IMG/VR virus record: IMGVR_UViG_3300005326_000046
Location: 1 to 64,000 of that record
DNA length: 64,000 nt
Direction: 5' to 3' (one strand)
Source of the DNA: a virus
Taxonomy: Duplodnaviria > Caudoviricetes
The notes below the pieces were generated by a model. It ran no database searches. It saw only the letters and a program-made list of their open reading frames with translations, and had not been told where the DNA came from. Made by a program: the position numbers and the translations under genes. Shown one piece after another: positions 1,860-6,938 of the stretch (position 1 is the first letter of the stretch; every line of letters begins with the position of its first letter).

Positions 1860-2385
1860 GGTGTCCGTCAAGCAAGCTATCCATAAGTATGCTATTGTCC
1901 TATCTGGACGGGAAGGTAAATCCTTGGCCGGGTGTCGTTGCATTCTTTTGCGCGGCGCGCCTTCCCGTTCCCTAATGCCTGTACCATGTGACTATCCTTC
2001 CCACGACAAAGGCCCAGATTGTCGGATACTGGGTATCACATAAGTTGTCACCCCGCTTCGCCCCCAGGCGGGTTACAGCCGAGGAAAACAAGGCCGACGA
2101 TTCTGCTTGAGCGTATCGACTCCCCACAGGAGAATACGACTCTGCAAAATGTTGTTGTACGACAGCCAAGGGCGAAAACGTGAGCTATCTTCGCTACCCA
2201 GATTCATACCGATCGCAGTCGCCGCAAGGCGAGTAGGTGCGTGTGAAGTCCTCGCGAGAGGCACCCGGTAAAGCTGCATCCTGGGCGGGTTACCACACAC
2301 GTTAGCGAAACAACCGACGCCGGCTCCATACGGTTGACTCGCGTGCCTATCCCCACGATAGGGGTAGGTGCGCTCACTGCCCTCA
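1860..2385 (+). ncRNA. Candidate large structured non-coding RNA, antisense to the tail operon
   Basis: No credible ORF; many helices with GNRA loops (2219-2232 GCAA, 2250-2261 GCGA) and G-U pairs that only work on the + strand (2341-2373, 2151-2166). Confidence 0.5.
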
Positions 2386-2404: not shown

Positions 2405-2848
2405 TTACGATGCGTTCCACTCTCCATAAACCACCCGATAGCGACACACGACGCGCGGCCAGGCCAACTCGGGCTCGGGCATGTTCGCGGGACCGCCGAT
2501 CATCTCACCCCAGACGATAAGTTCCGTGTGTGATCCGACCGTCACTAGCTGGCGTTCCAAACGATGCAACGCGTCTGCCAGGTACGCGGACACGCCGCGC
2601 GCGCTGGTTTGCGTCGCGCCGTAACAATAGAAAACGAACACCTCATCGGCCATGGGAATGTCCCGGTTGCCCATGCCGCCGTCACCAGCAAAGCTGATGA
2701 AGTCTTTCGGCTCACTGATGCCAACCGGAATCCCCAATGGAGGTCCGTAGATCTTCTGCGTGGTCGCGTCGAGCGCTGCCATCAGTGCCGTGACCGATGT
2801 CAAGTAGGTGTATACAAGCTTGTCGCCGTCAATGCGTGTTGCGGTCAT
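2405..2848 (-). CDS. Tail completion/terminator protein
   Basis: 147 aa, follows HK97 gp10-like gene; IYGPP...FVFYCYGAT...ARGVSAYLADAL...YRVVY pattern. Confidence 0.6.
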   Translation of the reverse strand: MTATRIDGDKLVYTYLTSVTALMAALDATTQKIYGPPLGIPVGISEPKDFISFAGDGGMGNRDIPMADEVFVFYCYGATQTSARGVSAYLADALHRLERQLVTVGSHTELIVWGEMIGGPANMPEPELAWPRVVCRYRVVYGEWNAS

Positions 2849-3352
2849 TTAGCCAAACTCCGGGAACAACGTAGCGGATGTGGGCACACTCAGGTTGACG
2901 CGCCCCTTGTACAAACTACCTGTTCCAGATAGGAACTTGCGGGCAGAACTACGCGCGATCGAATCTGTGTCAAAGCGTACTTCCTCGACAGCGGGCATGA
3001 TCCATGGGTAGCGATAGTGCGTGCCCGACTTGGTTGTCCAGCCCATTTCCAAATATGCGCCGTATTCCATGTCAGTGAAGATAAGTGCCGTCTTGAGGAA
3101 GCCGCGCGGTTGCTGTTGCGTCTTGACGCTCTTAGCCAATTCGCCCGAATCAATATGCTTGGATTGTGGACGATGAGGATGGGGACCCGGACCAATACCG
3201 GGTGATACGGAATGCTTGGCAATGTCCGCCGCGGCCGCGGCCAGAACATCGGCAACATCCTGGGCAAAGCTATTGCCCATCCTGCGCACTTCGGCGGAGC
3301 GGTTATTCACCTCGACGCGGGCACTGACACGCATTGCCTTGCTTCCAGACAC
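2849..3352 (-). CDS. HK97 gp10-like tail component
   Basis: DSGELAKSVK...EYGAYLEMGWT...YPWIMPAVE motifs; synteny. Confidence 0.75.
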   Translation of the reverse strand: MSGSKAMRVSARVEVNNRSAEVRRMGNSFAQDVADVLAAAAADIAKHSVSPGIGPGPHPHRPQSKHIDSGELAKSVKTQQQPRGFLKTALIFTDMEYGAYLEMGWTTKSGTHYRYPWIMPAVEEVRFDTDSIARSSARKFLSGTGSLYKGRVNLSVPTSATLFPEFG

Positions 3353-6119: not shown

Positions 6120-6938
6120 TTAGAGTTTCGGTGAATGCCACTCAATGGTTTCGACAACCGTATCTGGGATTGGATAGCCATCCTGATACGTTACCGAGTA
6201 GTCACCGATCTTCTTGCTCTTCACCCCGCCGCTATCGCGCCAGCCGTGCCACATGCTGCCGAGAAGCGCAACTACCTCTTCGATGCCCAGCGCCGGGATG
6301 TAACGATAGATTGCGGCTGCATTGCTATGTGTTGCTGCGGTGGTACCGTTGTTGCCGCGCAGGACCGTTATCGTGTTGCCACTGATCCCGGAGATGAACA
6401 TCTGCTCTGTGTCAACCAGCAAACTCCAGCCCACTTGTAGCAGCGCGCCAGAGCTTGCCGTGAATGTCGTCGCGGACGTGCTGGTGATGGCCGCGCCCAG
6501 CGTCGCGCCCGTGTCGTCGTAGTCCTCACTGTAACCCCAGCGCCCCAGAATCGAGATTGCCTTCTTGCGCGTGTCTGAGTAGTACCAGAAGCGCGACGTC
6601 TCGATCAACTCGATACGTTGCTTGGGGTAGCTGTTCAGCGGGTATAGCACGTAGTCGCTGGCGTCGATCACACCTTCATCATCGCTCATGGTCGTGATTG
6701 CCAGCAACCCGTTGCCGCCGCGCAGATACAACGCCTGTCGCGGCCACGTGGGCCAGTCGAAGTAGCGCGTTTCCGTGACCGGGATGAACGTCCATCCGGC
6801 CGTGGTGTCGACCCACGCGCTCGCGCGCTCGATGTAGCGGCTGAGCTTGGCATCATGTGTCGTTGTAGCAGCAGCGATGCCAAGCTCATTCTTGAGCGCG
6901 TCCAGGCTGATGTACCAACGCCGTGAGCGCGTCGCCAT
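6120..6938 (-). CDS. Head-tail connector (HK97 gp6/SPP1 gp15-like)
   Basis: YISLDALKNELGI...HDAKLSRYIERASAWVDTTAG; C-terminal VKSKKIGDYSVTY. Confidence 0.75.
   Translation of the reverse strand: MATRSRRWYISLDALKNELGIAAATTTHDAKLSRYIERASAWVDTTAGWTFIPVTETRYFDWPTWPRQALYLRGGNGLLAITTMSDDEGVIDASDYVLYPLNSYPKQRIELIETSRFWYYSDTRKKAISILGRWGYSEDYDDTGATLGAAITSTSATTFTASSGALLQVGWSLLVDTEQMFISGISGNTITVLRGNNGTTAATHSNAAAIYRYIPALGIEEVVALLGSMWHGWRDSGGVKSKKIGDYSVTYQDGYPIPDTVVETIEWHSPKL

Follow-up and report, generated by a model that had tools for sequence, protein, structure and literature searches.

The DNA analysed here (the window) comprises the first 64,000 nucleotides (nt) of a virus genome of 80,003 bp with direct terminal repeats (Caudoviricetes; IMG/VR record IMGVR_UViG_3300005326_000046), and the subject of this report is a gene-free gap in its neck and tail module, in which an RNA of the EGFOA family was recognized. 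From ~10.7 kb down to window base 1 the genes lie on the minus strand. Matches to Pfam and PHROG families identify a head-tail adaptor gene (6120–6938), a tail completion/Neck1-like gene (2849–3352) and a GT2 glycosyltransferase gene (1121–1735). A tail-terminator-like gene (2405–2848, minus strand) was assigned through phrog_123 (E = 3.9e-4); it has homologues of 43–83% identity, and the cassette described below is bordered on the right by the 3′ end of this gene. Between the glycosyltransferase and tail-terminator-like genes, the list of open reading frames (ORFs) and the matches of the flanking genes delimit a gap of 669 nt (1736–2404), which gene callers also left empty on four public contigs identical to this phage. 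ORFs of 30–124 amino acids (aa) occur within the gap, none of which was judged credible, and all frames across 1890–2010 are broken by 1-nt indels with respect to the relative L182 (comparison contigs and loci are designated by L numbers). A 124-aa minus-strand ORF at 2073–2447 was considered as a protein gene and rejected; it has no Pfam or PHROG match and spans DNA that is missing in relatives. EGFOA RNAs have been described as located in unusually long gene-free regions (bioRxiv 10.64898/2026.07.01.735769), and the 669-nt gap is a region of this kind.

An initial annotation of this DNA had proposed an Rfam scan, and the whole window was searched with the covariance models of Rfam 15, with the curated gathering score as the threshold. 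The search returned a single match, to EGFOA (RF02955): positions 2192–2303 of the plus strand, and of that strand only, score 48.5 bits against a gathering score of 37.7 (cmscan; E = 1.1e-5 in the 64-kb window), and the alignment covers model positions 1–108 of 108. We hold it very probable that the gap contains a full-length EGFOA-class RNA. The consensus helices P1–P4 all form in the cmscan alignment, in which two positions are flagged as non-standard. P1 (2219–2232, GCAA loop) and P3 (2250–2261, GCGA loop) are the stems TCGCC-GCAA-GGCGA and CCTC-GCGA-GAGG of the initial annotation, which had also paired CGTGTG with CACACG (2240–2245/2296–2301) in what proves to be P2 (2239–2245/2296–2302); P4 is formed by 2263–2267 and 2286–2290. 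The conserved 5′ motif of the family, CCCAGAU...CCGUCGCAG, is present with CCCAGAU at 2197–2203 and a deviation that reads CCGAUCGCAG. The conserved P4 loop, GUAAAGCU...CCUGGG, is present with GUAAAGCU at 2268–2275, and the deviation there is an extra U in CUGCAUCCUGGG. The GNRA loops GCAA and GCGA are readable only on the plus strand, and together with the covariance-model match they confirm the choice of this strand, which had been made earlier from such loops and G-U pairs; the fold z-scores given below are likewise better on the plus strand.

The locus is no new RNA class. GOLLD, ROOL, group I and II introns, RNase P and tmRNA gave no match at the gathering score across the window; within 1600–2600 the Rfam covariance models returned nothing but EGFOA and noise at E<=10, and ARAGORN found no tRNA and no tmRNA. 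The initial annotation had already seen no signature of introns, RNase P or tmRNA, and in this it was right, but its suggestion of a GOLLD/ROOL-like or new class is displaced by a full-length, above-cut-off match of the core to a catalogued family. What the locus adds to this known family is an extended architecture, a lineage-specific repeat and a natural cassette swap, all of which are useful leads. RF02956 is a different family (DUF2693) and not an EGFOA-associated motif, and it has no match here. The EGFOA motif was reportedly first described by Weinberg et al. in 2017, in Nucleic Acids Research (NAR). A second, degenerate EGFOA unit was considered at 2014–2085, on the strength of the common segments CCCAGATT and GGCGGGTTAC, and was rejected: there is no covariance-model match at E<=10, and the 10-mer repeat is within chance. 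The duplication of GGCGGGTTAC that had been pointed out is exact but not significant, with 3.2 matches expected in the window at up to one mismatch; our own estimate for any 10-mer repeating within 526 nt is ~0.13.

Further members of the family were collected with a two-anchor pattern, which yielded 10 viral and 37 genome contigs with ~27 true members, whereas simple patterns of the EGFOA loops had returned mostly chance matches. Three viral records with EGFOA were confirmed by the Rfam model, at 57–74 bits. The alignment of 27 sequences reveals a pseudoknot, in which the 5′ motif pairs with the P4 loop through CCCAG/CUGGG and GUCGCAG/CUGCAC. Of the cells in this alignment, 99% are paired, compared with at most 47% in slid controls, and 17 cells are changed on both sides, compared with 4.7 in shuffles (0/500). 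Covariation in homologues, which the initial annotation had named as a check, is thus strong for the family pseudoknot. In the window, CCCAG (2197–2201) pairs with CUGGG (2281–2285), and GAU-GCAG (2211–2218, with C2214 bulged) pairs with CUGCAUC (2274–2280), all on the plus strand. The two deviations of the window, GA for CG at 2211–2212 and the extra U at 2279, compensate each other: taken together, they keep every pseudoknot pair and lengthen the helix by one pair. Judged from the sequence, such compensated deviations are what a functional copy of the RNA should look like. Of the stems listed in the initial annotation, all but one are present. The exception, the long-range pairing of GCAGT (2215) with ACTGC (2376), is contradicted by these data, since GCAG at 2215–2218 pairs with CUGC at 2274–2277 in the covarying pseudoknot.

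In the 27 EGFOA loci collected from bacteria and other phages, conservation extends ~100 nt beyond the Rfam model, and divergent loci, counted from CCCAG, can be aligned up to approximately +170 to +220. All 27 aligned loci have a hairpin ~30–60 nt past the core, C-rich in its 5′ arm and G-rich in its 3′ arm; in a model-fitted alignment, 24 of its cells are changed on both sides, compared with 12.4 in shuffles (0/500). The hairpin is preceded by a GGAUACCUCA-type motif and followed by a GUUKUCCUC-type motif, with CCUC motifs in the 3′ domain of 27/27 loci. A short segment follows each of the two motifs, with one copy on either side of the hairpin; the copies agree within a locus and differ between loci, as in TCGATGAGCTC of L169, AAATCCATATG of L137 and CTTCACACAG of L133. 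In an alignment-anchored permutation test on 18 subgroups, own-locus pairs of this direct repeat exceed cross-locus pairs (p=5e-5), and the repeat of the window takes rank 1 against cross-locus controls. The repeat copies are often partly palindromic, as was seen at equivalent places in L169, L137, L133, L131, L157 and L162. At other loci the EGFOA units have sharp borders and measure ~300–340 nt, and the conserved unit stops directly after the second repeat copy, as the cassette of the window does.

In the window, the 3′ domain outside the Rfam model occupies 2304–2402 of the plus strand, as delimited by the family hairpin, the repeat test and a model built without the window. It consists of a hairpin with GGCUCC in its loop (2311–2316/2331–2336), the conserved 13-bp hairpin P6 (2341–2373), CCUC motifs (2380–2393) and the direct repeat CGGTTGA (2331–2337 and 2394–2400), whose second copy ends 5 bases before the stop codon of the tail-terminator gene. 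Both hairpins had been read correctly in the initial annotation, the first as CAACCG/CGGTTG, and now find their place in this conserved domain. The 3′-domain model has its best match in 136 kb of sequence at 2314–2402, and the 3′ tail resembles that of L169, a Thermoleophilia genome bin. The match is weak (12.7 bits, E = 0.32), and homology of the 3′ domain of the window to that of the family is therefore taken as likely, not proven. Because the window has the 3′ extension too, the RNA should measure roughly 230–300 nt, and the natural unit appears to have two to three times the length of the 108-position Rfam model.

A 5′ extension is likewise conserved at many of the other loci, where an A-rich motif, a hairpin and CCGUUAGAGGG lie within ~90 nt 5′ of the core. 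Its candidate counterpart in the window is a pair of leader hairpins (2112–2138 and 2151–2166, plus strand), both noted in the initial annotation and both present in the minimum-free-energy (MFE) fold. The same fold predicts a closing helix on the plus strand, the 5′ strand of which (GGGC 2170–2173 and GUGAGC 2180–2185) pairs with 2373–2383. A family-wide self-versus-cross test of such a helix between a 5′ GAGG motif and a 3′ CCUC motif was not significant (p=0.19). A model in which the two repeat copies take turns in pairing with one upstream segment was also tried; by eye it fits the window and L169, it fails at L133, and it was dropped.

Fold stability was compared with dinucleotide shuffles for each region and strand. 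The stretch 1860–2385 has a z-score of -1.76 on the plus strand (4/100 shuffles as good) and +0.39 on the minus strand; for 2099–2404 the values are -2.27 and -1.33, and for 1860–2098 they are -1.03 (not significant) and +1.06. The expectation of a fold better than shuffled controls is borne out modestly for the whole and for the cassette on the plus strand, and not for the left block.

A comparison of the window with sister phages reveals that the EGFOA RNA is carried in an exchangeable unit. In relatives at ~74–79% DNA identity, the window aligns over 1103–2098 (78.8%) and again from 2419 onward, and the plus-strand segment between, 2099–2418 (cassette A, 306–320 nt, fold z -2.27), is unmatched: L182 and L181 carry another sequence there (cassette B) and L183 a TnpB element, between flanks that are 74–79% identical. 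Replacement between alignable flanks identifies the EGFOA unit as an exchangeable insert. The cassette also supplies the last codons and the stop codon (2405–2407) of the tail-terminator gene on the opposite strand. The initial annotation had described a ~520-nt, ORF-free structured RNA antisense within the tail operon. Non-coding, structured, on the plus strand and opposite to the tail and neck genes it is, but not one evolutionary unit, as 2099–2418 is replaced wholesale in relatives. The borders of the cassette, read in the alignment with the relatives, show no terminal repeats.

Cassette B is 305 nt long and free of ORFs (L182:376–680 and L181:~913–1229, on the minus strand of those loci, which corresponds to the plus orientation of the window), with a fold z-score of -2.96. 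It has the site, the strand and nearly the length (305 versus 306 nt) of cassette A in common, and by eye it has an EGFOA-class 3′ domain, consisting of GGAAACCUCA, a CUCUCCC/GGGGGAG hairpin and CCCGUUUCCUACGCC, the last of which comprises 15 nt identical to L148. By contrast, its score with the 3′-domain model is only 6.5 bits, its 5′ two-thirds look unrelated or rearranged, and it gave no EGFOA match at E<=1 and no Rfam match. Cassette B may be a rearranged or a separate RNA family. In L183, the C-terminus of a TnpB/Cas12f-like protein (PF07282, E = 2.3e-11) occupies the EGFOA slot on the same strand, and the element shares its right junction with the cassette of the window. The TnpB end is followed by ~150 nt of probable guide-RNA scaffold that reach up to the tail-terminator stop codon (L183:864–1115, minus strand). 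Two further sister-phage contigs from metagenomes, L179 and L180, end 17 nt past the tail-terminator gene, at the cassette border; assemblers stop in this way when a sample contains several variants.

Relatives of the tail-terminator protein are few, and none was found among the viral contigs. In relatives at ~50% protein identity, the tail-terminator gene is followed by no gap. The distant relatives L174 and L175 lack both the gap and the two genes of 324–1735, so that all 2.1 kb have the appearance of an accessory insertion into the neck/tail module. One of these genes, both of which lie beyond the gap, encodes the GT2 glycosyltransferase and the other a 310-aa protein that matches no family. 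Among 50,697 cultured-phage records, blastn found no match to the gap or to either of two other EGFOA loci.

EGFOA RNAs occur in phages and integrative elements. Members were found in complete or near-complete phage genomes, in Paenibacillus, the Bacillus group and other Firmicutes, and in many bins of Solirubrobacterales, Thermoleophilia and Gaiellales; in low-GC genomes they lie in ORF-free gaps of 0.7–1.9 kb. Among 130 neighbouring ORFs, the commonest families are resolvases (7), phage integrases (6) and large serine recombinases (5), followed by DNA polymerase III alpha (3, all phage) and IS110 transposases (3). An ~87%-identical RNA is found in unrelated gene neighbourhoods in L131, L149 and L151, and both orientations relative to the neighbours occur. 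This distribution pattern is that of cargo carried on mobile elements. Three low-GC phage contigs present a setting unlike the tail module (L115:9321–12182, L129:8265–11129 and L130:8695–11553): EGFOA lies in a gene-free region of 0.7–1.3 kb, just upstream of DNA polymerase III alpha and downstream of an ORF of 1,700–2,460 aa without Pfam match. Elsewhere, a small serine recombinase or tyrosine integrase gene is found ~510–570 nt upstream of EGFOA on the opposite strand (L133, L135, L143 and L166) or ~520–545 nt upstream on the same strand (L140, L141 and L163), with IS110 transposases another 1 kb off in three of those bacterial loci.

Overall, the explanation to which we lean, with some reserve, is an autonomous accessory RNA gene on the plus strand that acts in trans. 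The gap would hold a "moron-like" gene for an EGFOA-class RNA of roughly 230–300 nt, with a 5′ leader from about 2099–2170, the core at 2192–2303 and the 3′ domain to ~2402. The RNA is expected to fold into a pseudoknotted core and a conserved 3′ hairpin flanked by the locus-specific repeat. Its gene would reside in a cassette at a swap hotspot just past the tail-terminator gene, and would presumably be transcribed independently of the late operon. The product may act in trans as a folded, probably homo-oligomeric RNA, serving as a scaffold or decoy. This mechanism, a trans-acting oligomer, is proposed tentatively. Cryo-electron microscopy (cryo-EM) of two EGFOA members revealed that in vitro they assemble into a trimer/hexamer and into a dimer held by 3′-terminal strand exchange (bioRxiv 10.64898/2026.07.01.735769; PDB 23NN and 23ND). 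The duplicated 3′ segment described above could feed strand exchange in oligomers of this type.

Several points weigh against the accessory RNA gene. The oligomers are known in vitro only, from two other members. The folding z-scores are modest, and the 12.7 bits of the 3′ domain of the window are lower than the score of every training sequence. In 1500–2700, no sigma-70 consensus promoter was found, and no intrinsic terminator on either strand. The four other public copies of this phage, which recurs in ERZ27247097, SRR5248219, JGI 3300001866 and 3300002171, are 100% identical over 1101–2900, so that the cassette offers no within-lineage covariation.

The region upstream of the cassette bears on the extent of the transcript. 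Within the gap, 1750–1850 is an AT-rich segment (40–43% GC), which is a candidate promoter or operator region and is largely conserved in L182. The repeated CATACTAG reported there by the initial annotation (1812 and 1834) stands out, with four copies in the window against 0.76 expected, and the segment also contains a 13-nt inverted repeat, GGAACGAGTATGG (1779–1791)/CCATACTAGTTCC (1811–1823). Read from the sequence, the inverted repeat and CATACTAG could constitute an operator, or promoters that serve the RNA and the glycosyltransferase genes in divergent directions. The segment is followed by a non-coding left block (1860–2098, plus strand) with a long hairpin at 1906–1971 and another at 2044–2081, possibly a leader or a second RNA. 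The left block is conserved in the only relative that covers it, L182 (a ~79% identical contig; L181 overlaps 2044–2098 only), with 83–87% identity over 1903–2098 as against ~70% in the adjacent coding N-terminus. In a two-sequence consensus fold with L182, all 62 pairs of the plus strand are kept and none is broken. The stem 1906–1916/1960–1971 of the initial annotation is present, with three compensatory changes at the base of the hairpin, and three further one-sided changes stay paired on the plus strand only. The alifold energy is -69.4 on the plus strand versus -59.7 on the minus strand, a difference of ~10 kcal/mol, and the minus strand has no compensatory changes. Two short left-block patterns were found in none of the viral contigs, and a left-block 20-mer recovered the L182 contig alone in a metagenome scan; the structure of the left block therefore rests on one relative and is suggestive on the plus strand.

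These features bring up a single plus-strand RNA of ~550–650 nt, which would start from a promoter in 1750–1850 and in which the left block and the EGFOA cassette would be transcribed as one and work together. Both parts prefer the plus strand, no terminator lies between them, and the left block is kept ahead of cassette A and of cassette B, as an expression platform would be. However, the two parts evolve independently through cassette swapping, nothing resembling the left block is present at any other EGFOA locus, and the units elsewhere are sharply bordered at ~300–340 nt. The left block alone, with a structure supported by a single relative, also folds no better than shuffles (z -1.03). 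We consider the long RNA unlikely. Under the accessory RNA gene that we prefer, 1860–2098 may be a separate element that supplies a promoter or leader.

The position of the RNA exactly between two co-oriented late genes, with a 3′ end that abuts the stop codon at 2405–2407, might instead point to a role in cis, in which a plus-strand antisense RNA, or the hairpins as they occur in the late mRNA of the minus strand, would act as an insulator or control processing, stability or read-through between the tail-terminator and glycosyltransferase genes. The minus strand of the cassette is also somewhat better than shuffles (z -1.33), and, compared with more distant phages, the glycosyltransferase genes are inserted. 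Yet EGFOA occurs in many unrelated contexts and in both orientations, often co-oriented with its neighbours, and the function of the family therefore cannot depend on a position antisense to tail genes. The structural signals (the covariance-model match, the GNRA loops and the G-U pairs) are confined to the plus strand, and no terminator-like site is present on either strand. A role in cis thus appears improbable.

Least convincing of all is an element that matters mainly as DNA, be it a recombination or insertion hotspot with the relic of a mobile element (such as the RNA end of an IS200/IS605-type element) or an origin-like repeat region, with an RNA fold incidental to the phage: the TnpB element at the same site and strand in L183, the breaks of L179 and L180 17 nt past the tail-terminator gene, the frequent recombinase neighbours, the placement upstream of the DNA polymerase III alpha gene in three low-GC phages and the direct repeats around the hairpin, which could be protein-binding sites, all speak for it, but they are outweighed by the strong RNA-type covariation that includes the pseudoknot, by the lack of tnpB or any other ORF adjoining EGFOA in the window or at the ORF-free low-GC loci, by the lack of terminal repeats at the cassette borders and by the defined three-dimensional structures that purified EGFOA RNAs adopt (bioRxiv 10.64898/2026.07.01.735769).

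Returning to the accessory RNA gene, one may go further and imagine EGFOA-class RNAs as self-contained, horizontally exchanged RNA gene cassettes, in which the duplicated 3′ segment would be a programmable specificity code for the choice of oligomer partners or of a nucleic-acid target, and cassettes A and B would be "alleles" of one RNA-based accessory system competing for the hotspot; in the window the code would be CGGTTGA. We offer this as a long shot. A canonical EGFOA RNA in a defined accessory slot of a complete 80-kb phage genome points to a part played in the biology of phages or mobile elements. In its natural form the RNA probably has two to three times the length of the piece that has been catalogued and studied structurally, and the 3′ hairpin and lineage-specific repeat may be relevant to the strand-exchange oligomers resolved by cryo-EM. 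In near-isogenic phages the same site is occupied by EGFOA, by a second structured RNA or by a TnpB element, which amounts to a natural swap experiment and provides a direct handle on function.

Like EGFOA, the GOLLD, ROOL and HEARO RNAs are orphan, highly structured non-coding RNAs found on mobile elements, and RNA-only homo-oligomers have been reported for ROOL, GOLLD and now EGFOA. These RNAs differ from the present one in length (400–800 nt versus ~230–300 nt), share no sequence or secondary-structure resemblance with it and gave no Rfam match. The omega RNA/reRNA of TnpB elements (IS200/IS605) resembles the window in that a structured RNA stands at the right end of the insert, at the target position that TnpB occupies in L183. 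By contrast, no tnpB-like ORF is found in, overlapping or adjoining the gap, there is no similarity to the right end of L183, and the low-GC EGFOA loci are ORF-free for at least 500 nt upstream. The closest comparison is with the EGFOA family itself: the single-stranded motifs CCCAGAU...CCGUCGCAG and GUAAAGCU...CCUGGG, helices P1–P4, the pseudoknot and the gene-free region are the same here. The copy in the window differs in the GA-for-CG change and the extra U of its pseudoknot, and in its setting: it lies antisense to the adjoining genes of a phage neck/tail module and within a swappable cassette.

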